From Promethearchaeota archaeon (GTDB taxonomy: Archaea > Asgardarchaeota > Lokiarchaeia > Sigyniarchaeales > SOKP01), in assembly GCA_016839745.1 (NCBI GenBank), contig JAEOTS010000045.1:1-64000 (forward strand): DNA of 64,000 nt, in the 5' to 3' direction. The translations under genes and the position numbers were made by a program. Below the pieces are notes generated by a model. It was not told the DNA's origin, ran no database searches, and saw only the letters and a program-made list of their open reading frames with translations. Within the stretch, counting starts at the first letter, position 1. Each line of letters starts with the position of its first letter. Positions 7,835-22,611 of this stretch are shown here, piece after piece.

Positions 7835-9145
7835 CTATTTTAATTTATAGAAAGACTCTTCAAATTCAGATTTACCTTTGTATTTTTGTAAAAAGATGAC
7901 TCCCCCCATATCTGTACCCCCTCCTTGAAACATAAGAGGATTAACCTTTATTCCACATATTTCAAATGCATCTTTTATATCCTCCATTGAAGGTGGGCAA
8001 CCTCTAATCGGTACTAATTCCTTTATATTAGGATGATCTTTATTTTTGTTATATTGACATTGACCAACGAGGATTGTTTTATTCATGCCGGACGAGGGTT
8101 CCATTATTTTACCCGTTAGAAATTCGATACCACCAAATGTTTCCCCATTCCATGCATTTTTCAGTAATACTAATAATAAACCATTAATCGCACTGCAGTA
8201 GGTACACATTGTAGTATCATATCGTTTGTATTTTAATCCTTTAAATTGTCGTCTATAAAATGGGAGTGGTAAATCACCAGCTTCATTATAAATGAACTCC
8301 CAATCGTGATGGGAAGCTACAGCTTCAATTTTTTCGCCAACAATCTCAATATCGGATAAACTAGTCGATCTATCTCTATCTTTAGCGGCTTGTACTAAGT
8401 GTGGTACATCTGAAGGTTCTATCCCTAACGCCTTCGCACCTACTATATCAGCCGATAAAATATCTTTGGATGCGATTAATAGATTTGTTCTGTGAGCTTT
8501 TCCATCCATTGAGGGGCCACGTTCCAGCGTATAAATTCCATCAATAAGTGTTAAAACCGGGGGAATATTATTTGGAAGCTTAGCAACATTGAAATGGAGG
8601 GTTTTTATTGGATCAGCACTATGAAATTTCTTTCGAGATGCTATATTGATAAATCCTTTAAGGTTTTTCATCCCCAAACTTACTACTGCTTGACTATGAG
8701 TTTTTAAAACGGGCAGACTAATAATATAATCGGCTTTTAGGGCATCAGAGGCAAAATTAACAAGAAATTCGCACCCCATATCTATTTTCTCATGCGGTCT
8801 ATCACCGGTATTAATTAGTTTTACACCAAATCGTTCCTTAAGATCGTTATACCCTAATTTTTTGAAAGCATCCTGAGCAGCTTCATTACTTCCAAACCCC
8901 TCACCAATTGTTATGTCATCAATTCCTTTTTCTTTTAAAAGGGTCACAACATCTTCCATAACCCGGGATGTAGTAATGACGCCCCATTTAGGATGAGGGC
9001 CACTGCTCCAGTAAACAATATTCGGTTTAATGAATATTTTTACTTCTTTAGGTAAATCATCAAATAATTTGGTTAACTCAACAACCTTACGGACGGATTC
9101 CAGAGGTTTTTCATATTTTACGACGGATACGATTGATTTACTCAT
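7835..9145 (-). CDS. DUF362 domain protein with C-terminal Fe-S motif (paralogue 1)
   Basis: IKPN, IGEG, PVLKTH, SLGMKNLKG, IDGIY motifs; C-terminal CTYCS...GQCQ...GCPP. Confidence 0.8.
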   Translation of the reverse strand: MSKSIVSVVKYEKPLESVRKVVELTKLFDDLPKEVKIFIKPNIVYWSSGPHPKWGVITTSRVMEDVVTLLKEKGIDDITIGEGFGSNEAAQDAFKKLGYNDLKERFGVKLINTGDRPHEKIDMGCEFLVNFASDALKADYIISLPVLKTHSQAVVSLGMKNLKGFINIASRKKFHSADPIKTLHFNVAKLPNNIPPVLTLIDGIYTLERGPSMDGKAHRTNLLIASKDILSADIVGAKALGIEPSDVPHLVQAAKDRDRSTSLSDIEIVGEKIEAVASHHDWEFIYNEAGDLPLPFYRRQFKGLKYKRYDTTMCTYCSAINGLLLVLLKNAWNGETFGGIEFLTGKIMEPSSGMNKTILVGQCQYNKNKDHPNIKELVPIRGCPPSMEDIKDAFEICGIKVNPLMFQGGGTDMGGVIFLQKYKGKSEFEESFYKLK

Positions 9146-9204
9146 TATTAGTATCTACTCCTTTTTTTTATTTAAGAATTATTAATTTTGTATACAATAC
9201 TATT

Positions 9205-10527
9205 TTAATTTATTTGATAAAATTGTTCTTCAAATTCAGGCTTACCCTGATACTTTTGCATGAAGATTAACGGAGCCTTTTGGAGGTTTTTGAAGATATA
9301 AGATGGTACTTTAATTCCTGCTAGCTTTAAAGCGTTTTGCACGCTTTCAGCTTCAGGTGGGCACCCATCAATTGCGATAAGTTCGTTGATATTTGGATGG
9401 TCCTTATGCTTATTGTATTGGCACTGTCCAAGCAATATTGTTTTATTTTTTCCCTCAGACGGTTCCATGATTTTTCCGGTAAGTATTTCTACATTATCAA
9501 AATCCTCACCCTTCCACGCAGCTCTAATTGCTGTTAGTAATACTCCATTATAAAAACTGCAATAAGTACACATCGTTTCATCGTATTTAGGATAAGAAAT
9601 TCCCCCAATACCTGCTCTAGCGTAAGAGAGAGGTAGTGTATTATTATTTTTGTAGATAAAATCCCATCCATGGGGAACAGCAAGATCATCTATACTTTCT
9701 CCTTTAACTTCAATATCTGATAAGTCAATTGGGCGATTTCTATCTTTCGCCACTTGAACTAAATGAGGGACAGCAACAGGATCAATACCCAGCAAACTTG
9801 AGCCAACCAAATCTGCTGATAACATATTAGTCGATGCTAGTACTATATCGCTTCTATGGGCTTTACCGTCAAAAGTTGGACCTCTCTCAAGCGTGTAGAT
9901 TCCATCGATGATTGTTAGGCCAGGAGGTGCTTTGTTTGCTAATTGCGATATGTTATAATTAAGGTTATATTTAGGATCTTCTCCATGAAACTTTTTCCGT
10001 GAGGGTATGTTAATTAAGCCTTTTAGATTTTTTAATCCTAAGCTAACAACACATTGTGCATGAGTTTTTAAGACGGGGACATCAATTAAGAAATCTGCTT
10101 GAAGCATATCTGCATTCATTTTTGCCGACACTCCTTCAGCTAACTCAACTTTTTCGAATGGTCTTTGGAATATGTCGTATACTTTAACTCCGTATCTTTC
10201 TTTTAATATATTATAACCAAGCTTTTCGAAAGCGTCTTCGGCTGTTTCTCTATCTTTTGGATTTTCTGTGACTATCCCTTCTCCGATAATAATGTCTTTG
10301 ACGCCATGCTCTTTGAGTAATTTTAAAATTTCTTCCATAAGACTCGAAGTTGTTAACATACCCCATTTAGGAAAGTCACAATGCCTATTCCAATAAACTA
10401 AATTTGGTTTTATGAAAACTTGTGCGTTAGGGTTAAGTTTTTCAAAACCATTCGCCATTTCGACAGCTTTTCGAACAGAATCATTTTCTTTTTCGTATTT
10501 TACAATTGATACAATCGATTTACTCAT
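9205..10527 (-). CDS. DUF362 domain protein with C-terminal Fe-S motif (paralogue 2)
   Basis: Same motifs and MSKSIVS start as 7835..9145; tandem paralogue. Confidence 0.8.
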   Translation of the reverse strand: MSKSIVSIVKYEKENDSVRKAVEMANGFEKLNPNAQVFIKPNLVYWNRHCDFPKWGMLTTSSLMEEILKLLKEHGVKDIIIGEGIVTENPKDRETAEDAFEKLGYNILKERYGVKVYDIFQRPFEKVELAEGVSAKMNADMLQADFLIDVPVLKTHAQCVVSLGLKNLKGLINIPSRKKFHGEDPKYNLNYNISQLANKAPPGLTIIDGIYTLERGPTFDGKAHRSDIVLASTNMLSADLVGSSLLGIDPVAVPHLVQVAKDRNRPIDLSDIEVKGESIDDLAVPHGWDFIYKNNNTLPLSYARAGIGGISYPKYDETMCTYCSFYNGVLLTAIRAAWKGEDFDNVEILTGKIMEPSEGKNKTILLGQCQYNKHKDHPNINELIAIDGCPPEAESVQNALKLAGIKVPSYIFKNLQKAPLIFMQKYQGKPEFEEQFYQIN

Positions 10528-10628: not shown

Positions 10629-11174
10629 TTACTCATTTGTTTTCTTTTCCCAGTCTTCTCTTAGGATAGCCATTATTACTTCGTCGTAATACTTGCCATT
10701 ATGATACCTTGCTTGTCTTTTTCTTCCTTCTTCGACAAATCCAACTTTTTGATATGAGTTGTAAGCGCGAGTATTAAAATCCCAAACACTCAATTCGATC
10801 CTATTCATATTTAACGTGTTGAAACCGTACTCTACTAACATCTCCATTGCCTCTGTTCCGTATCCTTGATTTTGGTAATTTTTCTCTCCGATGGTAATAC
10901 CGCAAGTACACGCTCGATTTTTAGAGTCTATATTATGAATAGCACAATTTCCTATGATTTTCTCAGGGTCTTCTTGATCTAATAGAAATATTGAAAAATG
11001 AACCATATCTTCCTTGTGTTTGAGCACATCGAACCATTCTTCTTCCCAATCACGGGTTAATGGTTTATACATCAATAAATATTGCGTTATTTCGGGGTCG
11101 TTAAACCATTTTAAGAATATATCAATGTGTTTCCTATCAAGAGGAGCAAATTTAATTCGCTTTCCTTTTATCAT
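10629..11174 (-). CDS. GNAT N-acetyltransferase, RimJ/RimL family
   Basis: GITIGEKNYQNQGYGTEA, NxRAxxSYQKVGFVEEGRKR. Confidence 0.9.
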   Translation of the reverse strand: MIKGKRIKFAPLDRKHIDIFLKWFNDPEITQYLLMYKPLTRDWEEEWFDVLKHKEDMVHFSIFLLDQEDPEKIIGNCAIHNIDSKNRACTCGITIGEKNYQNQGYGTEAMEMLVEYGFNTLNMNRIELSVWDFNTRAYNSYQKVGFVEEGRKRQARYHNGKYYDEVIMAILREDWEKKTNE

Positions 11175-11245: not shown

Positions 11246-14107
11246 TTAGAAAAATATTCCTGATCTACGAGCGAAGTATTTAACGAGTTCAAAAGATACG
11301 ATACAGATAAGCGAAATTAAAAAGCAGACTAACCAATCCCAGCCCGTGAGAAACATAAATCTAAAATTTAAACCCCAATCAGCAAGCGTTACTTGAACTC
11401 CAGGAATATAGATCAGCGCAAGAAACACAGCAAATAAGAATCCTATTAGTAAATACATGAATCGAGTGCTATCTTCTTTAATACTTTTGATTAAAGATTT
11501 ATTTGGCCTCCTAATTTGCAGAATTAAAAAGGATTCGCAGAAGAATAATGTTACCATTAGCATCGTAAGTGTTTTAGCTTCGTTAAGAGTAATCCCACTT
11601 CCATCTGGGAAGGTTAAAGGTGAAAACAGGTAGCCTTCGTTTAAATCTCCAAAATTGATAACAGAAACTTCAGGACCCAAAAGCGTCGTAAAATACACGA
11701 CTATCATGCTTACAGCTAATAGAGCTCCAAAAATGAATAAAAGGGTTACGGTGTTTTTTGAAAGAATTTCCTCTTCGTCGTGAGGTTTTTGTTTCATAAC
11801 ATCCTTAGATGTCCTATCAAACGTGAGAATAAGACCCGGGAAAATGTGAAGAGTAATCGAAAGGAAAATCCACTGATAATAAAATGCTTCGTCCAAGAAG
11901 TAAGGGAGGTTCAAAATTACTGATAAGATGAATTGGACGATTCCCTCAAAGACATTAATACAGATATAGAAAAACACCACTGCTCTGATACGAGAAAATA
12001 TTCCGCGTCCTTGTTCTATCCCAGTAACGATTGAAGTAAAGGAATCGTCGCTTATAACCATATCAGAAGCTTCCTTGGATACATCAGTACCTTGAATGCC
12101 CATTGCTATGCCTGCATCCGCCATATTCAGAGCTAATGCATCGTTCACGCCATCACCTGTCATAGCGACTACCTGATTAGCGTCTTGATATTTTTCTATA
12201 ATATCTTGTTTATGTTCGGGTGATACTCTTGCAAAAACCTTAATTTTGCTAAAATCGAAGAAAGATTTAACATTCTTTATATCTTTTCCCTCTAAAACGA
12301 TTTCATCTTCACTTTTAATTATTGAGATTTGCTTAGCAATTGCACGAGCCGTTTTGACCGAATCTCCCGTAATCATTACAACATCTACTCCTGCATCGTG
12401 ACATTGTTCCACGCTTTGTTTTACACCTTCTCTGGGAGGATCTAATATCGTAACGAAACCAATATATATCATGTCAGATTCACATAAGTCTCTACTTTTA
12501 TCGTCTTCAGGAGGAATAATATCTAATTTTTTATAACACAAACTGAGAATTCTGAATCCTTGCTCAGCATAGATATCTTCAATTTTAATTATTTTATCTT
12601 TAATCTCATCATTTAGATCTAACTCTTGGTCTTTAAATATAACTTTTTTACACAAAGGCATCAGAATCTCGCTTGCACCTTTAGTAAAGGAGTAAAATTT
12701 CCCATCTCGTTTGTAGATTTTAGTCATTCTTTTTACTTTGGAATCGAATGGGTACTCCTTTACATATTCAAAATCTTCAAGGAGATAATCACCCATTCCT
12801 TTTTGAAAGAGGACCATTAAAGCTCCTTCTGTAGGAGAACCGATTACGTTCCAGTTTGGAATTACTTTTCCGGAAATTACAACTTCATTTTTTACTAATG
12901 CAGAATTATTGTTTAAAAATCCAGAGGTTAGTAACAACTTTAGTTGAGGAAAATCATCGATGTGTTTAACCATTACCGAATTCTTTGGATCATCGACTAA
13001 TATGATATCCCCTTCAGGGCTATACCCGCTTCCTGTTACTTTATAATTAGAACCATTTGTCCAAACATGTTGAATAGACATCTGGTTCTTAGTCAAAGTA
13101 CCTGTTTTATCCGAACACACTACGCTTACACGGCCTAAACTATCTACTGAGGCGATATTTCTAATAATTACACCATGATGAGCCATAGCTAAAACTCCGG
13201 TTAATAAAATAATTGTTACGAGGAGCGGGATATTAATAGGTAATAAATCTAGAGCTGATGTCAGACTTTTTACAACATCTATAACTCCGGTTGCCAACCA
13301 TACGATTAATATTATAAAGAACCAAAAACCTATAACGATTAATCCTAACCATTTGCCAAAATTGTTCATTTTTTTTCTAATGGGAATATCTGAAGTTCCA
13401 GCGTCTTCTAAACCTTGCGATATCTTACCTATTTCAGTATCCTTCCCCGTTTTTACAGCGATAGCTGTAGCATTACCAGTAGTGATGAAAGTCCCATAAA
13501 AGATCATATTATGTCGTTCAGCAATCGAGACATCTTTTTTTGTTAAACCAGCTCCTTCTAGGTTTTTTCTAACAGGTTCTGATTCACCAGTGAGACTAGA
13601 TTCATTAACTTCTAGGTTTGAACCTTGAACTATTCTCCCATCAGCGGGTACTCGATCACCCTGCTTTAACACTAATAAATCTCCAACTACAACACTTTTA
13701 GTTAAAATATCTGCTTTTTGTCCATTTCTAATAAGGGTAGTTGTAGGCGCAGTCATTTCACGCAGTGCGTTTAACTTTTTTGTTGCGCGATATTGTTGAA
13801 TAATAGCTACAAAACAATTAAGAGCCACTACACCTAGTGTTACAAGAATAAAGATGATATCTCCATTGCCGTTAAAAATAGCTGCGAGAAATAATATTAA
13901 AACCCCAGCTAAATATATAACGATAAGCCAATTAAATAAAGGAGCAAGGTATATTTTAATAAAACCTTTAGAAGCTTTAGGGATTTCGTTTAACCCGTAA
14001 AGTTCAAGCCGTTTTTGGGCTTCTTCATTCGTTAAACCACTAGACGAATTAGTTTCAAACTTTTTATAAATCTGATCTAATTCCATATTGTAATAAATCT
14101 CTTCCAT
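11246..14107 (-). CDS. P-type ATPase, P2-like backbone with non-canonical transport site (paralogue 1)
   Basis: TGES, CSDKTGTLT, KGASE, DPPR, MITGD, ARVSPEHK, MTGDGVNDA; ~10 TM; M4 reads LLPINIPLL instead of PEGL. Confidence 0.92.
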   Translation of the reverse strand: MEEIYYNMELDQIYKKFETNSSSGLTNEEAQKRLELYGLNEIPKASKGFIKIYLAPLFNWLIVIYLAGVLILFLAAIFNGNGDIIFILVTLGVVALNCFVAIIQQYRATKKLNALREMTAPTTTLIRNGQKADILTKSVVVGDLLVLKQGDRVPADGRIVQGSNLEVNESSLTGESEPVRKNLEGAGLTKKDVSIAERHNMIFYGTFITTGNATAIAVKTGKDTEIGKISQGLEDAGTSDIPIRKKMNNFGKWLGLIVIGFWFFIILIVWLATGVIDVVKSLTSALDLLPINIPLLVTIILLTGVLAMAHHGVIIRNIASVDSLGRVSVVCSDKTGTLTKNQMSIQHVWTNGSNYKVTGSGYSPEGDIILVDDPKNSVMVKHIDDFPQLKLLLTSGFLNNNSALVKNEVVISGKVIPNWNVIGSPTEGALMVLFQKGMGDYLLEDFEYVKEYPFDSKVKRMTKIYKRDGKFYSFTKGASEILMPLCKKVIFKDQELDLNDEIKDKIIKIEDIYAEQGFRILSLCYKKLDIIPPEDDKSRDLCESDMIYIGFVTILDPPREGVKQSVEQCHDAGVDVVMITGDSVKTARAIAKQISIIKSEDEIVLEGKDIKNVKSFFDFSKIKVFARVSPEHKQDIIEKYQDANQVVAMTGDGVNDALALNMADAGIAMGIQGTDVSKEASDMVISDDSFTSIVTGIEQGRGIFSRIRAVVFFYICINVFEGIVQFILSVILNLPYFLDEAFYYQWIFLSITLHIFPGLILTFDRTSKDVMKQKPHDEEEILSKNTVTLLFIFGALLAVSMIVVYFTTLLGPEVSVINFGDLNEGYLFSPLTFPDGSGITLNEAKTLTMLMVTLFFCESFLILQIRRPNKSLIKSIKEDSTRFMYLLIGFLFAVFLALIYIPGVQVTLADWGLNFRFMFLTGWDWLVCFLISLICIVSFELVKYFARRSGIFF

Positions 14108-14188
14108 GAGAAATTCTCCCGCGACTTTTGATGAATTAAGTGTTGTTATTAAAAAATATTTATAATAAATAGACTATAGAAATTCTTC

Positions 14189-14208
14189 TTTTTATTTTAT
14201 AGTATTTT
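14189..14208. repeat. 20-bp direct repeat, copy 1 (TTTTTATTTTATAGTATTTT)
   Basis: Exact second copy at 15105-15124, with weaker similarity extending on both sides. AT-rich, so significance is moderate. Confidence 0.65.
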
Positions 14209-14263
14209 GATTTAATAAAATTAGTAATTAAGAGTAAAACTAAAATTTAAAATATTATAAGAA

Positions 14264-14803
14264 TTAAATCCACTTTTCCTGTAATTCTTTACCCGTTATC
14301 TTACCGACTTGTTCAATAGCAAAAAGAACAAAATTTACACATTTATTTTCCCAAGCCCTATTTCTCACGTACTCTTTTAATTCTGTACCAGTATTGTACC
14401 CACATATTTCCTCACAGCTTAATGAGCCAAATTTTCTTTCAAATTTATTCGCAAACATTATCACTTTTGAATATAATTTAGAAACTTCAAATTTGACTAA
14501 TTTTTCTTTGCCTCCTGTGATAATTCCAATCGCAGTTATTGCTCCATACAGAGCACCACATGTACCTTTACTTCCATTTTTGCTAGTATAAGCAGCCATA
14601 GCACTGAATGGAATTGCGAGATTACAAAAGTATTGGTTCGTTAATTCTTCTCTATCGAGGACATCTAAAATGTTCATAAAAGTTAATGAAGCACAACTAT
14701 TTCCAGGATCTTTTCCTAATGGAGCAAGGTTCTCTTTTAAATACTCAATTTTATCTTTAAACTTTTGTTTAAAATCAATATGAACTAAGTTATTCGAACT
14801 CAT
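14264..14803 (-). CDS. C-GCAxxG-C-C family putative redox-active protein
   Basis: NSCA...GTCGALYGA...FERKFGSLSCEEI...KCVNFV spacing typical of the family. Confidence 0.8.
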   Translation of the reverse strand: MSSNNLVHIDFKQKFKDKIEYLKENLAPLGKDPGNSCASLTFMNILDVLDREELTNQYFCNLAIPFSAMAAYTSKNGSKGTCGALYGAITAIGIITGGKEKLVKFEVSKLYSKVIMFANKFERKFGSLSCEEICGYNTGTELKEYVRNRAWENKCVNFVLFAIEQVGKITGKELQEKWI

Positions 14804-14857
14804 GATTAATTTGTATTGGATTTTCTTCTATAAATATTTAACTTAATTGGTAGTATA

Positions 14858-15098
14858 TTAGAAAATAATTTGCTTAGATCTAGATAAACACTTGAAACTT
14901 TCGATTCCAATAAGCCCTAATAACGCAAATATAATACATATTAACCAATCTATTCCACCCAGGAACATAAAATTAATTTGAAGGTTTAAACCGAACACAT
15001 CGTTCACATAATAGTTTAAAGTTTGAGAGAACACAATATAGATAAAATGCAATGCCAATGTGAATAGGTTAATCAGGAATAGGGATGAACTGAATTCC
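14858..15098 (-). pseudogene. Remnant of the 3' end (M9-M10) of a P-type ATPase similar to 16903..19770
   Basis: LALHFIYIVFSQTLNYYVNDVFGLNLQINFMFLGGIDWLICI...KQIIF aligns with LALHVLYIMFSQTVNYYVNDEFGLDFQINFLFLSGSDWIICI...KNIIF; similarity stops near ctgaattcc at ~15090-15098. Confidence 0.85.
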
Positions 15099-15104
15099 TC
15101 TTTA

Positions 15105-15124
15105 TTTTTATTTTATAGTATTTT
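15105..15124. repeat. 20-bp direct repeat, copy 2
   Basis: Identical to 14189-14208. Confidence 0.65.
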
Positions 15125-15256
15125 AATTCGATAAATTTAGATATGAAAAATAAAATCAGTAATGGAATTATATCTATTTTTCCTCTACATGTCTTTTCTA
15201 GTTAATTGTTCTTATTATTCAGGCAACTAAAAAAAGCACTGATTAGTGGAAGAAAA

Positions 15257-16768
15257 TTATTTGTTTTTATTGATACAAACAATCCTTAATTTAACCGTTA
15301 TTAAACTAATCCCAATCAGTGCAATTAACATATAACCAGGAATAATAGGTGATTCTTCTACAGCCACTAGTTTGACAACCTGAACATCCTTACTTCCGAT
15401 TAATCCTGCGCTATTATTCGCATAGAATTTAATTGTTACTTCTTCATTCTCTTTTTTGTCCCATTCAATTTGGTCGATGGTTCCATTTAATCCACTTGCA
15501 GGAATATTTGTTATTCCATTATCTATAGTATACCAAATATCATTGTATGCCCCAGTTATGGATAAGTTATAATCTGGACTAGTTATTCCAAAAATCTGGT
15601 TCTCGGTAGGTGTGTTTATTGTAATTACAGGGGTACTGGTATTAATCACGATTACTTTGATATCATATGAGAATTGTGGAAAATCACCACTAAAAGCAAA
15701 CATAGGATTAAGAAATTCACTTACTGTCAAAGAAGGTGGAACAAAGAAATGAGCTCCTACATTCCAATGAAATCTCAAGATATCAATTTTATTAAAATAA
15801 TTTGAGCTAATATGCCATGTCGGATCACAAGCAATCCAACCTATATTTGGTACGTAATATTCCATCCATGCCTGCAACATCATTGTTGAACTGGAATCAT
15901 TAAAGGTAAATTGGTATATATCATTAATTTTTGGCTCGAATAAAGAATTATTTGAAATTAAAAATCCAGTAACTTTACGAGCAGGAATATTCTGAATTCT
16001 TAAGAGTGTAATCATCAAACTTGAATATTCACTACAATCCCCCTCTCTATTATTATATGCCCATAAGGCACCCTTTTCTTGAAACGGAAGATTTCCATTG
16101 TAAGTAAGATTATTTGAAACCCACTCAATAATTTTTCGAGCTTTCTCAATGGGATTATCATCATAACTAACGATGCTATTAGAAAGGTCTATTAAGGTCG
16201 GATCGTCTCTTTCATAATAGGGCTCTGAATTATTACAATATAAATCAAAAATTTCATCACTTGTATCGTAATCTCCTATATCCTCGTCATTAATATCTTG
16301 AAATTCTATTTTATTTAACTTAACTGTATATTTTTGATTAAAAGTAATTTCTTCGCCTGGTGAGAGGCTGGCATTAAATGAATCGTATGTATTATTAAAC
16401 TTATCATGATGTCCTGTATTAATCTCAGAAGGGTTATATCCACCGATATAATTATACAAAAGCTCACTTTCTTGATAAGGGGGGCAAAATTTTGTTAAAG
16501 GAGAGTCAGGAATACGATTATTTAATCTTGCAAATTTAAAATAATACTCACCAGGAGTATATGTGGGAGTTAACGAAAAATTAGTTTCAATCTGATAAGT
16601 AACAGTTTGAGAGATATTATATTTTGATACACCCATATTTGATTGGGATGAAAATTGAAAAGAGTATCTATCTTGAGCGTCAAAGTTGAATGGGAAAAAG
16701 ATACTTAATGGGATAAGAAAAGTTATAATGAAAAAGCCTATAAAAACGAAAATATTCTTATTTTTCAT
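15257..16768 (-). CDS. Secreted transglutaminase-like protein with Ig-like domain and IPGY tail; catalytic His appears replaced by Gln
   Basis: GDCSEYS (Cys), LQAWMEYY (HAW expected), GWIACDPT (Asp); WYTIDNG Ig unit; IIPGYMLIALIG tail. Confidence 0.82.
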   Translation of the reverse strand: MKNKNIFVFIGFFIITFLIPLSIFFPFNFDAQDRYSFQFSSQSNMGVSKYNISQTVTYQIETNFSLTPTYTPGEYYFKFARLNNRIPDSPLTKFCPPYQESELLYNYIGGYNPSEINTGHHDKFNNTYDSFNASLSPGEEITFNQKYTVKLNKIEFQDINDEDIGDYDTSDEIFDLYCNNSEPYYERDDPTLIDLSNSIVSYDDNPIEKARKIIEWVSNNLTYNGNLPFQEKGALWAYNNREGDCSEYSSLMITLLRIQNIPARKVTGFLISNNSLFEPKINDIYQFTFNDSSSTMMLQAWMEYYVPNIGWIACDPTWHISSNYFNKIDILRFHWNVGAHFFVPPSLTVSEFLNPMFAFSGDFPQFSYDIKVIVINTSTPVITINTPTENQIFGITSPDYNLSITGAYNDIWYTIDNGITNIPASGLNGTIDQIEWDKKENEEVTIKFYANNSAGLIGSKDVQVVKLVAVEESPIIPGYMLIALIGISLITVKLRIVCINKNK

Positions 16769-16902
16769 CTTAAATTTAATAAAATCTTTGTCTTTTTATT
16801 GGTATAAAATTATTATAAAAATATTATAAGAAAATATTTAAACTATTTTACTTTTTTTCGAGAGCTCAAGTGAAATGAGTTGATTTATTCATTCATTACG
16901 AT

Positions 16903-19770
16903 TTAAAAGATAATATTTTTTCTTCTCGCAATATATTTAAAAATCTCTATTCCAATTATTCCTGGTAATGCAAGCAAAATACATATAATCCAATCGGAAC
17001 CGCTCAAAAAGAGAAAATTAATTTGAAAGTCTAATCCAAACTCATCGTTTACATAATAATTTACTGTTTGGGAAAACATAATATAGAGTACATGCAAAGC
17101 AAGTGTAAAAAGACTAACCACGAATAAAGAGAGACTGAATTCCCTTCTAAAGCTTTTAAATAGACTTTTATTCGGTCGTCTAATACTCCAAATAAATGTA
17201 GTTTCCACGATATACAATGTTGTAATAAACATAGTTCTTGCCTTTTGGGAGAGTAATTCGTCAGGAGTCGAACCAATTGGCAAATAACTAATGTCTGGAT
17301 TAAGATTCCATTCGTTTAGTGGGAAAGCGCCTCCTAAGGTCAATTGAAGCACTAAAAATAAGCCAATTCCCATTAAAAATGCTTGTGTTAATAATAGAAT
17401 CCACATATTCCTATTTAATAACTGTGCCTTGTCTCTCGGAGGTTCCCTCATCACATCTTTAGGATGCTTATCAATTACTAAGGCTAAAGCTGGTAAAGAA
17501 TGAACAATTCCATAAATATAGATATGCTGCCATTCTGAACTAAATAACTGAAAAAAAGGAATAAATTCATAAGAGAAAAATATCACAGATTCCATTAAAT
17601 TTAAACAAATAAAAAAATATATGATTGTACGTATTCTTGCAAATAAACCGCGACCAATCTTTACACCTCTAACTATAGATGTGAAGTTATCATCACTCAC
17701 AACCATGTCCGCAGTTTCTTTGGCTACATCAGTACCTGTTATTCCCATGGCTATCCCAGCATTTGCTAATTTTAAAGCTAATGCATCATTAATACCGTCA
17801 CCGGTCATAGCACAGATGTGATCATCTGACTGATACCTTTTTACAATTACCTCCTTATCAGAAGGATTAACTCGTGCGAACACAGACACTCTCTCGAAAT
17901 CTTTATCGCTTAAATTATTAATTTCTGAGCCTTCTACCACTAGATCACCTTCCTTATAAATTCTCATTTGAGCTGCTATAGTTTTGGCTGTTGCAGGATG
18001 GTCCCCTGTAATCATTGATATTTTAATACCAGCGGATTCACTCTCCTCTACTGAAGCCCTCACTCCAGGTCTTGGAGGGTCTAGTATTGAAACATATCCT
18101 AAGAAAACAAGATTATTTTCGACTTCTTGTCTTTTAAAGTCTTGTTCTCCCTCGATTTTCTTATATCCAATAGCCAAAGTTCGATATCCTTGTTTCGCTC
18201 GGATTTGTATGCTGTCTGTTAAGAGCACCTTTAGTTTTTCAGTTAATTGTTCTTGTACACCATTTATTTCAATTTGAGTTGTTATATCTAAAAGCCTTTC
18301 TGGAGCTCCTTTCGAGAATGCTATAATTGTAGTATCATCGTCATTAAGTTTACAAACAGTTGTCATTCTTTTAAATTCAGAACTAAACGAAAATTCTTTT
18401 AAAGGTAAATATTTTTTTTTAATATCATACGGGATGTACCCTGCTTTTTCAGCTAACACTAATAATGAAGCTTCTGTTGGCGAGCCTAAAGCCTTTCTTA
18501 CGGGAATTTCCTTTGATTCTTTTAATCGAACCTTTACATCCTCATATACTAAATTTGCGTTATTATTTAATACGCTTGAATCAATGAACTTTATAAATGT
18601 AGAATTTTCCTTTAAGCTCACATTGTTTCCATTTTCGAGAATAATCCCATCAGGATCATAACCTGAACCCGTAACTTGGTATTCTTTATTATTTATCCAA
18701 AGATTTTCAACCGTCATTTCGTTCTTAGTAATTGTACCAGTCTTATCTGAACAAATTACGGATACGCGACCGAGAGATTCAATTGCAGATAAATTTTTTA
18801 TTATAACTCCACTTTGAGCCATGTTAAGAACACCTGTAACCAAAACGAGCGTTGTTAATAGAGGTAAATTAATAGGCATGATCCCCATTGATCTTAGAAT
18901 GGAAGATATTATCGCATCACGTATATTCACACCAAAAAATAAACCTTCTAATCCTAAAACAGAAAATTTATACACAATTAAGACGATTAAGTAAAGGATA
19001 ACAATAGTTCCAAGAATATAGCCTAACCTATTTAATTTTCTCGTTAGAGGAATATCCTCGATACTTCCCATCTCGTTCAGTTGATTTGAAATTTTTCCAA
19101 TCTCAGTATTAAGACCTGTTCCAGTGACTACTGCTTTCAATCTACCGGTATTTATGTAAGTCCCCATGAACACCATATTACTTTGGTTCTGAATAGATAA
19201 ACCTTTGTCTTTAATCTCTTTATCATTCTTTTCTACTGGTTCGCTCTCACCAGTAAGTGGAGCCTCGTCAATGGTTAGATTGACCAATTCAAGAATTCTA
19301 GCATCTGCACCGATTTTGTCGCCTTGTTCTAATAGAATAATATCTCCTGGAACCAGTTCTTTTGTAGGAATTTCAAATTGGATCCCATCTCGTAAGACGA
19401 CCGTTTTTAAAGCAGCAATTTGTCTTAAAGCTTCTAAAGCTTTTTGAGCTCTATACTGTTGAGTTATTACGGTAATTGAATTAATAATTACTACCGTAAA
19501 TGTTATGATTGTTGATGTTCTATCTCCGAGTAATATAACGATTCCTCCCGAAATTATTAAAATTATAATTAAAAAATTAAAAATAGGCGCGAGATATACT
19601 TTCCATAATGATTTTCTAATCTTTGGTAGTTCGTTGCATCCATATTTATGCTTTCTTTTTTCAATCTCGGAAGTACTCAAACCATTATTAATATCTGTTT
19701 GAAATGTAGTAATTAAACTTTCTATAGGTTGAAAATAAGCTATATCAGAAGGAGGCTGGGTTTGAATCAT
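16903..19770 (-). CDS. P-type ATPase, P2-like backbone with non-canonical transport site (paralogue 2)
   Basis: TGES, CSDKTGTIT, KGAPE, DPPR, MITGD, MTGDGINDA; M4 reads IMPINLPLL. Confidence 0.92.
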   Translation of the reverse strand: MIQTQPPSDIAYFQPIESLITTFQTDINNGLSTSEIEKRKHKYGCNELPKIRKSLWKVYLAPIFNFLIIILIISGGIVILLGDRTSTIITFTVVIINSITVITQQYRAQKALEALRQIAALKTVVLRDGIQFEIPTKELVPGDIILLEQGDKIGADARILELVNLTIDEAPLTGESEPVEKNDKEIKDKGLSIQNQSNMVFMGTYINTGRLKAVVTGTGLNTEIGKISNQLNEMGSIEDIPLTRKLNRLGYILGTIVILYLIVLIVYKFSVLGLEGLFFGVNIRDAIISSILRSMGIMPINLPLLTTLVLVTGVLNMAQSGVIIKNLSAIESLGRVSVICSDKTGTITKNEMTVENLWINNKEYQVTGSGYDPDGIILENGNNVSLKENSTFIKFIDSSVLNNNANLVYEDVKVRLKESKEIPVRKALGSPTEASLLVLAEKAGYIPYDIKKKYLPLKEFSFSSEFKRMTTVCKLNDDDTTIIAFSKGAPERLLDITTQIEINGVQEQLTEKLKVLLTDSIQIRAKQGYRTLAIGYKKIEGEQDFKRQEVENNLVFLGYVSILDPPRPGVRASVEESESAGIKISMITGDHPATAKTIAAQMRIYKEGDLVVEGSEINNLSDKDFERVSVFARVNPSDKEVIVKRYQSDDHICAMTGDGINDALALKLANAGIAMGITGTDVAKETADMVVSDDNFTSIVRGVKIGRGLFARIRTIIYFFICLNLMESVIFFSYEFIPFFQLFSSEWQHIYIYGIVHSLPALALVIDKHPKDVMREPPRDKAQLLNRNMWILLLTQAFLMGIGLFLVLQLTLGGAFPLNEWNLNPDISYLPIGSTPDELLSQKARTMFITTLYIVETTFIWSIRRPNKSLFKSFRREFSLSLFVVSLFTLALHVLYIMFSQTVNYYVNDEFGLDFQINFLFLSGSDWIICILLALPGIIGIEIFKYIARRKNIIF

Positions 19771-19875: not shown

Positions 19876-20838
19876 TTAGGCATGAGATTCTTGTGGATCT
19901 CCCAAAATATCAACTAATACATGATATTTCTTTCTGATTGTTGTACTTGAAAATCTGCTAGTTTGTTCAACAATACTTTGAGTAAAAATTTTGCGATTAT
20001 CTAGCGTTTGTCCTATATAATAAATCAATCCGGCAGTGAATGCTTTGTAATTTAAGTTTAGAATTTTATCGTATGGAATTATGCTTAAAAGTTCATCTGC
20101 TAACAATTGCATTTCCATTTTTAATTTCGTGTATTCCTGTTCGTTCTGAAAATGTTGTTTTACTCTTTCATATTGGATAATGTTTAAATCTTTTTGAAAA
20201 AGAATTTTAACTTTGCTCTTTATTTCTTGCTCTAAGTTGATTGTGTTTTTATAACCCTTTATTCTTTTATCTGTTCGCTTAACTTTTAGCATGGCATTAT
20301 TAAGCATTTTCTTGTTTATTTTATGTCCCAGTTCTTTAGAAGTTTTTATGAAATCTTCAACTCTTACATTAGTTGTTTCCTTGATCTCCATCCAAATAAT
20401 CGCTAGGAAAATAATAACCATATTTTCGTAGGTTTGACGATGATACTTGTTATATCGTAGATATTTATCCTTAATTTCATTATATTTAGCGTTATCAATA
20501 CTTAATCCAATACCATTACCCTTCAACATGCTAATAGTTTTCTTCTGTTCAGTAAAGCTACTTTCAGAATCCCGAAACCATTTATTTAGAGTTTTTATCT
20601 GTTCATAACGTTTTCTTGTTTCTGGATCCTGAATTGCTTTAGAGTCGCTCATTCTTATTTTTCTCTCGTATTCTAATTGAGAATCAGAATAAAAATCTGG
20701 AGCAGGAGTTCTTTCAAAAGCAATTTGATCTGTCTCAATTAAGCCACAATCTTGACATACAAAGAAACCTCCTTCTTGTTTTACATTCTTATGCATACAT
20801 TCGGTATCTTCCGCGTAATCTTTCTTATTATCGTTCAA
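19876..20838 (-). CDS. Divergent TFIIB/TFB-like protein (Zn ribbon plus cyclin-fold repeats)
   Basis: N-terminal CMH...VCQDCGLI ribbon; C-terminal KAFTAGLIYY...TQSIVEQTSRFSSTTIRKKY resembles the TFB second repeat/HTH; TTG start. Confidence 0.7.
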   Translation of the reverse strand: MNDNKKDYAEDTECMHKNVKQEGGFFVCQDCGLIETDQIAFERTPAPDFYSDSQLEYERKIRMSDSKAIQDPETRKRYEQIKTLNKWFRDSESSFTEQKKTISMLKGNGIGLSIDNAKYNEIKDKYLRYNKYHRQTYENMVIIFLAIIWMEIKETTNVRVEDFIKTSKELGHKINKKMLNNAMLKVKRTDKRIKGYKNTINLEQEIKSKVKILFQKDLNIIQYERVKQHFQNEQEYTKLKMEMQLLADELLSIIPYDKILNLNYKAFTAGLIYYIGQTLDNRKIFTQSIVEQTSRFSSTTIRKKYHVLVDILGDPQESHA

Positions 20839-21678: not shown

Positions 21679-22611
21679 CTAAAGCCTTGATTTTATTTGT
21701 TTTGCCCTGCTACGTAGTGTCACTTCGGTTATTTTAGCTATATCAGCCACAAGAGATTGAGTTCTTCTAATAGCTCCATCCTTTGCTGCGATATAGATAC
21801 AAGCGGCAGCTAATCCTTTAGGGTCTTTCCCTGTGCGCGCTAAACCGTTCTGAGATGCCGTTCTTAACATGTCAATTGCATCCTTTTGAACCTTCATAGG
21901 CAATTCTAATTCGTTTCCAAATCTAAAAACTAAAATTTCAGCTGTTATAGGCTGATATCTCAACCCTAATTGAGGTAATACTTCCCTTATAATCATAGCT
22001 AAACTTCTGTGAACAGTTCTTCTAGGCGTTAAAGAAGCCTCACATACTTCGTCTAATAATCGTGGAAAGTCATGAACTCGAATCGCAGCGTATAAAGAAC
22101 CTGCGATGAAACCATTAATTGATCTTCCCATTGTTAATTTTTTCTTGGCAACAATACTGTAAATCTTCCAAGCTGTTTCTGAAATGTATTCTGGAATGTT
22201 TAATTTTGAAGTTAACATTTTTAATTTGGGTTTAGCTTCCCAGAAATTTCTTTCTATGCTTGAAATTAACGAATTTTGAATTTTAGATAAACGTGAAAAT
22301 AAAGCTTGTTCTTTAGGTCCTATTGATTTGCCTTTTGAATCGGTCTTTGTGGTCGGAAGCATCGTTCTCGGGCCAAAATCTCGCCAACGAGGTTCAGTTC
22401 GTCTTCTATTTTGGATTTCTTCTACAGTATAGGCTCTTCTCTCGTTACCTACATATGTTCGCTCTGCAATCATGCCACAATTTAGACATACTTTATTACC
22501 ATCGCGCTCTTCGATGGAAGGATTAGTACAACAATCAACCTTTTTACTAGAGGGCAAATTATCTTGATCAATATTTTTAGTTTTTATTAGATCACGGTAA
22601 TTGCTATTCAT
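21679..22611 (-). CDS. tfb: Transcription initiation factor IIB (TFB)
   Basis: Zn ribbon CC...VCLNCG, ERRAYT reader, SIERNF, GRSI, GKDPKGLAAACIYIA, ITEVTLRSR. Confidence 0.93.
   Translation of the reverse strand: MNSNYRDLIKTKNIDQDNLPSSKKVDCCTNPSIEERDGNKVCLNCGMIAERTYVGNERRAYTVEEIQNRRRTEPRWRDFGPRTMLPTTKTDSKGKSIGPKEQALFSRLSKIQNSLISSIERNFWEAKPKLKMLTSKLNIPEYISETAWKIYSIVAKKKLTMGRSINGFIAGSLYAAIRVHDFPRLLDEVCEASLTPRRTVHRSLAMIIREVLPQLGLRYQPITAEILVFRFGNELELPMKVQKDAIDMLRTASQNGLARTGKDPKGLAAACIYIAAKDGAIRRTQSLVADIAKITEVTLRSRAKQIKSRL

Follow-up and report, generated by a model that had tools for sequence, protein, structure and literature searches.

Two tandem Asgard P-type ATPases with a substituted ion site appear to belong to a sister branch of the prokaryotic calcium pumps

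What does a P-type ATPase transport when it resembles a calcium pump along its entire length and yet lacks side chains with which calcium pumps hold their ion? The question is raised by two genes in a 64,000-nucleotide stretch of DNA from a Promethearchaeota archaeon (contig JAEOTS010000045.1, positions 1 to 64,000; hereafter the window). P0001 (11246..14107) encodes a P-type ATPase of 953 amino acids, assigned to a PINIP subclade on the basis of an open, full-length reading frame, Pfam domains and an AlphaFold2 (AF2) model. P0002 (16903..19770) encodes a second one of 955 amino acids, assigned to a PINLP subclade from its reading frame, Pfam domains and position in a tree, and is a deep paralogue of the first. 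These and all other features described below lie on the minus strand. The two proteins are 41% identical over their full length, and each carries the five Pfam domains of the P2-type set, namely E1-E2_ATPase, Cation_ATPase, Hydrolase, Cation_ATPase_N and Cation_ATPase_C. The motifs TGES, DKTGT, KGA, DPPR and TGDG(V/I)ND can all be located in both. Judged from reading frames and motifs, P0001 and P0002 are catalytically competent P-type ATPases, and an earlier note on this DNA was right that two clearly diverged pumps of about 955 residues have kept their catalytic machinery.

The departure from the calcium pumps lies in the transmembrane helices (M1 to M10), for which SERCA residue numbers are used here. 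In P0001 the M4 motif reads PINIP (13226..13240, residues 290-294), with Ile at the position of E309 and Asn at that of G310; in P0002 it reads PINLP (18862..18876, residues 299-303). Helix M6 is altered in both proteins, P0001 (11837..11875, residues 745-757) having S750 at N796 and H754 at D800, and P0002 (17491..17529, residues 748-760) having Tyr at N796 and His757 at D800. Retained are the M5 pair that corresponds to N768 and E771, found as Asn718 and Glu721 in P0001 (11945..11959), where both are nearly invariant among homologues, and as Asn and Glu in P0002 (17590..17604). The M8 glutamate E908 is likewise kept, as Glu858 of P0001 (segment 11528..11545) and Glu856 of P0002 (segment 17197..17214). 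Two further changes are found in the first helices of P0001. Its M1 carries Pro56, Phe58 and Asn59 (13931..13945) where PEGL pumps have Gln-Phe-Lys, and the cytoplasmic end of M2 carries Gln105 (13784..13801) where every other P2 or P3 pump compared has Glu.

The register of these substitutions is secured by two alignments. A HMMER alignment of P0001 with LMCA1 of Listeria (6zhf) is gap-free through M4 and M6 and pairs the PEGL Glu with Ile and the M6 Asp with His754. A multiple sequence alignment with 34 PEGL pumps gives the same register, with N796 replaced by Ser or Tyr, T799 by Leu or Val and D800 by His in P0001 and P0002. The claims of the earlier note about this site stand in full: its motif coordinates are exact, the exchanges of E309 for Ile and D800 for His together with the loss of N796 and T799 occur in both paralogues, and the M5 Asn/Glu and M8 Glu are kept, both in the alignment and among homologues. 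As the alignments have shown, the side-chain ligands of Ca2+ site II are erased in this clade, all three of them, and the view that P0001 and P0002 would be incapable of conventional Ca2+ binding is supported.

Across the clade as a whole, the E309 position holds Ile, Val, Leu, Phe or Trp, N796 is mostly Tyr or Phe, D800 is His, and the W794 position is Tyr or Phe. The fixed polar set comprises the M4 Asn at the G310 position, the M5 Asn and Glu, the M6 His and the M8 Glu. In M1 the Gln-Phe-Lys of PEGL pumps has given way to Pro-(Leu/Ile)-(Phe/Leu) with a conserved Asn after it, and the cytoplasmic end of M2 carries Gln, where all P2, P3A and P3B pumps in the comparison have Glu. In SERCA structures the corresponding M1 and M2 residues line the cytoplasmic Ca2+ entry path and touch E309. 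The joint loss of these entry residues and of E309 looks coordinated.

Is such a site the product of decay? Taken with the window proteins, the 120 database homologues nearest to P0001 (70-96% identity) show P[IL]N[IL]P in 121/121 and the M6 His in 121/121, so that Ile or Leu and His hold in the orthologues, where the earlier note had counted their non-conservation as a refutation. With P0002 as query, HMMER recovered from 1.84 billion representative proteins about 38 clusters (50% identity) with M4 P-x-N-x-(P/V), M6 His, M5 N..E and M8 Glu, below which the match list changes abruptly to ordinary PEGL / ...TD... pumps. Of 39 diverse clade members, 38 carry the His, 35 the M4 Asn and all 39 the M5 Glu. 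Finally, P[ILV]N[IL]P was read in 80 of 80 loci from other species. These came from screening 185,579 prokaryotic species, one genome apiece, for a clade-specific peptide that lies upstream of DKTGT and is present in about half of clade representatives and in no PEGL pump; the scan gave 278 stretches, and the locus results refer to the best 80. The comparison confirms that the substituted transport site is, as far as aligned residues can tell, selectively maintained, far beyond chance, and the earlier argument for selection rather than decay is borne out by a signature fixed at 121/121, 80/80 and 38-39/39.

Turning to family placement, the only NCBIfam model that P0001 and P0002 pass is the generic P-type model TIGR01494 (HAD-IC), with 294.6 and 264.2 bits, respectively, against a cut-off of 62.3. 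The best specific model is TIGR01522 for P2A pumps of the PMR1 type (471.7 and 452.4 bits, cut-off 798.3), followed by TIGR01116 for P2A pumps of the SERCA type (422.8 and 434.5, cut-off 703.4), TIGR01647 for P3A (332.5 and 333.5, cut-off 615.5), TIGR01657 for P5 (244.8 and 243.2, cut-off 618.25) and TIGR01652 for P4 (102 and 107.8, cut-off 431.25), while P1B models give 147-234 bits. The overall order is P2A, then P2D, P2C and P2B, then P3A, and last P3B, P5, P1B and P4. A full-length alignment to TIGR01523 had hinted at a particular closeness to fungal P2D pumps, an idea that was rejected when M7-M10 alone matched no family at E <= 0.01.

A tree was built with an IQ-TREE quick search (LG+G4) and rooted on the two CPC heavy-metal pumps of this genome, branch support being given by the Shimodaira-Hasegawa-like approximate likelihood ratio test (SH-aLRT). 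Its taxa are all prokaryotic, and its references are the P-type ATPases of five closed Asgard genomes; two of these proteins pass the P3A model TIGR01647 (786 and 706 bits) and two the P3B Mg2+ model. P3A branches first, then P3B, then a small group with the M4 motif PEELP, and the rest consists of PEGL pumps and the P-x-N-x-P clade. The latter is monophyletic (SH-aLRT 99-100; 100 for its 39 rows) and sister to the prokaryotic PEGL pumps, with P3A and P3B outside. P0001 and P0002 fall into different subclades and are ancient paralogues with no recent duplication behind them. An apparent sister relation of the clade to MgtA proved to be a long-branch effect, which vanished once the Asgard P3A and P3B references were added. 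As a separate observation, the PEELP group (L132 of genome G038 and L141 of genome G012) is a further, unassigned Asgard P-type group in which the M5 N/E pair has become Lys/Leu and N796 has become Glu; it lies between P3B and P2 pumps in the tree and reaches none of the NCBIfam equivalog cut-offs, its best score being 624 against 798.

The predicted structure leads to the same family. From a 136-row alignment, the AF2 model of P0001 reaches a predicted local distance difference (pLDDT) score of 88.9 and a predicted TM-score (pTM) of 0.86. In the model M4 is unwound at 287-292 between helices 278-286 and 293-310, and the M6 helix is broken at 753-755. The 50 best-ranked of more than 500 Foldseek matches in the PDB are all P2 pumps (SPCA1, SERCA, H/K and Na/K), the best TM-scores being 0.75-0.81, and no P4 or P5 structure is found among those 50. 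An ESM Atlas search returned generic cation-ATPase clusters only. Judged by profiles, tree and model, the clade is an ancient sister branch of the prokaryotic P2A (PEGL) Ca2+ pumps.

How widely is this branch distributed? Its named members are all Asgard, from Promethearchaeota/Lokiarchaeota and from Hel-, Odin-, Thor-, Hod- and Hermod-archaeota; the names of homologues, together with the kinship of the genome, bear out an Asgard source for the window. The best 80 scan loci are labelled Asgard or 'uncultured archaeon', bar one contig from a 'Candidatus Nanopelagicaceae bacterium' metagenome-assembled genome (L055, DATKTW010000083.1). On this 34-kb contig, of 34% GC content, the two pumps stand in the same tandem, 87% and 78% identical to those here; it was dismissed as an actinobacterial member, being almost certainly a misbinned Lokiarchaeal contig. 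By names, then, the clade appears to be restricted to Asgard archaea. A match to P0001 at E <= 1e-100 is found in 278 of 301 Asgard genomes, a threshold that also admits PEGL pumps. About 200 of the 301, or roughly two thirds, reach E <= 1e-170, a level not reached by G038, a genome verified to hold PEGL-type pumps only.

The five closed Asgard genomes hold 4, 1, 1, 1 and 0 clade members, and each of the four with clade members also has at least one canonical PEGL pump. The largest set is that of a closed 4.36-Mb genome of the same order (G213), whose four clade paralogues read PLNFP, PINIP, PVNIP and PINLP (L120, L121, L122 and L125); it has one PEGL and one CPC pump besides, and no P3A or P3B pump was seen among its matches. 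A distribution complementary to that of P3A proton pumps was considered and set aside, both types occurring in the same genomes. Bona fide P3A H+-ATPases, that is, those above the cut-off of TIGR01647, are themselves patchy, being present in 45 of 301 Asgard genomes, in some with two or three copies and sometimes in tandem.

A comparison with known P-type families narrows the range of plausible functions. The P2A Ca2+-ATPases (LMCA1 6zhf, human SPCA1 8iwt, SERCA and the PEGL pumps) share with P0001 and P0002 the ten-helix P2 architecture, the catalytic motifs, the N- and C-terminal Pfam domains, the unwound M4 and M6 and the M5 N..E; they are also the best matches in sequence, profile and fold and the sister group in the tree. 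The clade differs from them in that PEGL has become P-(I/V/L/F/W)-N-x-(P/V), M6 N796 has become Tyr, Phe or Ser and D800 His, the M2 Glu is Gln, the TGDGVNDAPAL of the P domain ends in ...NDALAL, the L7/8 loop is longer, and P0001 and P0002 fall 325-350 bits under the equivalog cut-off of TIGR01522. P3A pumps (TIGR01647; L131 and L140 in Asgard) resemble the clade in M4, where their P-x-x-x-P motif, PVALP or PIALP, places a hydrophobic side chain at E309, and differ in keeping the M6 Asp as proton acceptor, in lacking the M5 N..E, in scoring 706-786 bits on TIGR01647 against about 333, and in occupying a separate branch. P5 pumps are marked by a PP(E/A)LP motif in M4, which is absent from P0001 and P0002, whose M4 has a single leading Pro.

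The P4 flippases, with PISL in M4, share with the clade the Ile after the M4 Pro, a small polar residue beside it and the loss of the M6 Asp. The clade departs from them in the second Pro of M4, in the buried M5 and M8 Glu, and in its P2 fold and length; P4 flippases are not known to have the buried M5 Asn/Glu and M8 Glu. They are also known from eukaryotes only (PMC10654040). The analogy to flippases is one that rests on a single residue, and the PVALP or PIALP of Asgard P3A pumps shows that hydrophobicity at E309 is no hallmark of P4.

Two other families bear on what the M6 substitution might mean. The P6 pump CtpE of mycobacteria is prokaryotic, lacks the M6 Asp and is a working cation pump, which has Ile at that position and yet imports Ca2+ (PMC10654040); loss of the M6 Asp is therefore compatible with cation transport. 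CtpE differs from the clade in keeping PEGL, in having Ile and not His in M6 and in being bacterial, a separation made from its published description (PMC10654040). P1B-4 pumps of the sCoaT type share with the clade a membrane His, which serves there as an internal counter-ion in the transport cycle (PMC10654040). Their P1B architecture and SPC motif set them apart, in keeping with the low P1B scores of P0001 and P0002.

On balance, P0001 and P0002 probably transport a small inorganic cation other than Ca2+. They would run through an ordinary E1/E2 phosphoenzyme cycle in which one small cation is occluded in a site-I-like Glu-His-Glu-Asn pocket, the M4 Asn, M5 Asn and Glu, M6 His and M8 Glu together lining it. 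With two carboxylates buried, the site requires a compensating charge, a point in favour of a cation or proton over a lipid head group. Candidate ions would be a divalent metal that prefers His or, alternatively, H+ or a monovalent ion, and the data do not divide these. A ligand set of one His, two Glu and two Asn would be appropriate for Mn, Fe(II), Co, Ni or Zn; the M6 His could equally serve as a proton carrier or internal counter-ion. The P-type inventory of the source genome is in line with a P2 cation pump of separate function, since beside P0001 and P0002 it comprises three more such ATPases, a canonical PEGL/D800 pump on another contig (C93) and two CPC heavy-metal pumps. That deep paralogues are retained in tandem within this archaeal family suggests that P0001 and P0002 differ in specificity, direction or regulation.

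Several points weigh against this cation reading. A single pocket shared by the five polar residues is something we infer, and His is unusual in P2 sites. An organic cation, too, would be compatible with the aromatic side chains at N796 and W794 and with the neutralised entry. The gene neighbourhood holds no metal or ion clue, and a search for riboswitches in the pump region gave no Rfam match at E <= 1. P3A pumps and clade members occur together in 15 of 68 same-family genomes, which neither backs nor excludes H+.

The last of the structural points leads to a large or organic substrate, for which the hydrophobic M4 gate and aromatic M6 would form a groove or pocket able to take a polyamine, a lipid head group or another organic cation, after the manner of P4 or P5B pumps. 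Ile, Val, Phe or Trp at E309, Tyr or Phe at N796 and W794, and the neutralised M1/M2 entry residues all fit, and the GNAT acetyltransferase downstream of the pumps in 7 of 12 related loci has a weak likeness to spermidine acetyltransferase (51 bits against a cut-off of 218). Such a substrate is nevertheless unlikely. The P4 and P5 profile scores are far under the P2 scores, fold and tree are those of P2, two buried Glu and two Asn are kept, a hydrophobic M4 residue is common to P3A proton pumps, and the GNAT link is limited to one family and nonspecific. A CDC50 homologue (PF03381) was not found in the 89%-complete source genome, in a search without a positive control. On the same grounds of profile, tree, fold and retained M5 and M8 residues, the lipid or organic substrate proposed in the earlier note is not upheld. 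Its wider suggestion of an uncharacterised subfamily without conventional pumping survives as far as Ca2+ is concerned: the maintained clade, the missing site II ligands and the separate PEGL/D800 pump on C93 speak for it.

Could the current annotation simply be correct? The best profile and PDB matches of both proteins are Ca2+ pumps, their source annotations read 'Ca2+-transporting ATPase', and N768, E771 and E908 of site I are kept. Pumps that move a single Ca2+ (SPCA, PMCA and LMCA1) retain site II as their one site. It is exactly this site that has lost every side-chain ligand in the clade; in addition, the P2A equivalog cut-offs are unmet, that of TIGR01522 by more than 300 bits, and a canonical PEGL pump is available in the source genome and in the four closed clade-bearing genomes, all of which makes conventional Ca2+ efflux highly improbable. 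Harder still to credit is the idea that the tandem paralogues form a heteromer or a sensor or regulatory ATPase without cargo. The constant tandem order (12 of 12 same-family loci) and an M7-M10 region that by itself resembles no known family model would accord with it, but in other Asgard families and three closed genomes the clade member stands single, constraint on the polar pocket residues is as strong as a working site would demand, and the catalytic motifs are all intact. There is also a slim prospect that the clade represents a seventh, Asgard-specific P-type family, one that handles a class of substrate not seen before among P2-type pumps (a metal bound by His in a new way, an organic cation or the head group of a lipid) and stands on the stem of eukaryotic P4, P5 or P2D.

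With respect to the literature, no description of the clade was found in papers on the motif, on Asgard P-type ATPases or on uncharacterised prokaryotic families. A 2023 review recognises families P1 to P6 and expects further prokaryotic ones (PMC10654040), and a survey of the Asgard transportome files such proteins as putative Ca2+ ATPases under Transporter Classification number 3.A.3.2.21 (PMC7997004). The clade is thus apparently an undescribed Asgard sister branch of the calcium pumps, and both databases and that survey currently list it, wrongly, as a Ca2+ pump. It offers a concrete candidate for a further prokaryotic P-type family, an ancient one with several deep paralogue lines and as many as four copies in one closed genome, and found, by names, in no archaea but those nearest to eukaryotes. 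The usual pattern is turned around in its site, with site II erased, a site-I-like pocket kept and His in place of an otherwise invariant Asp, which makes the clade a test case, provided by nature, for ion selection in P2 pumps. Knowing what is transported would close a gap in Asgard ion or metal physiology. On present evidence the clade is without bearing on flippase origin; the relevance to P4 and P5 ancestry put forward in the earlier note is not supported, given P5 scores of about 244 bits, P4 scores of 102-108 bits and a sister position to prokaryotic PEGL pumps.

Newly seen, besides the neutralised M1 and M2 residues, is a fixed gene order. In all 12 same-family loci, a gene for a 320-residue protein resembling transcription factor B (TFB) is followed by a P0002-type and then a P0001-type pump gene. 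In the window the TFB-like gene (19876..20838) encodes a divergent protein that is 63% identical to its counterpart in locus L014, with a weak match to the TFIIB Zn-ribbon and a faint similarity to the second cyclin repeat of canonical TFB. It looks like a very divergent TFB paralogue, and a canonical TFB gene lies two genes away (21679-22611). The pumps are about 60-200 bp apart in 10 of 12 related loci, the others having about 2.9 kb (L022) and about 1 kb (L026) of other content between them. In the window, two inserted genes (14264..16768), for a C_GCAxxG_C_C redox protein and a transglutaminase-like protein, separate P0002 from P0001; they stand outside the conserved block, and no homologues of them were found between the pumps of the 12 related loci.

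Downstream of P0001 is the GNAT acetyltransferase gene already mentioned (Acetyltransf_3, 10629..11174). In other Asgard families a lone clade member sits amid unrelated genes in all nine loci examined, and gene context was given up as a clue to the substrate, the neighbours being wholly different outside the pumps' own family. Further downstream of the pump cluster lie two tandem DUF362 paralogues, about 55% identical (7835-10527), one or both of which are found nearby in 8 of 12 related loci.

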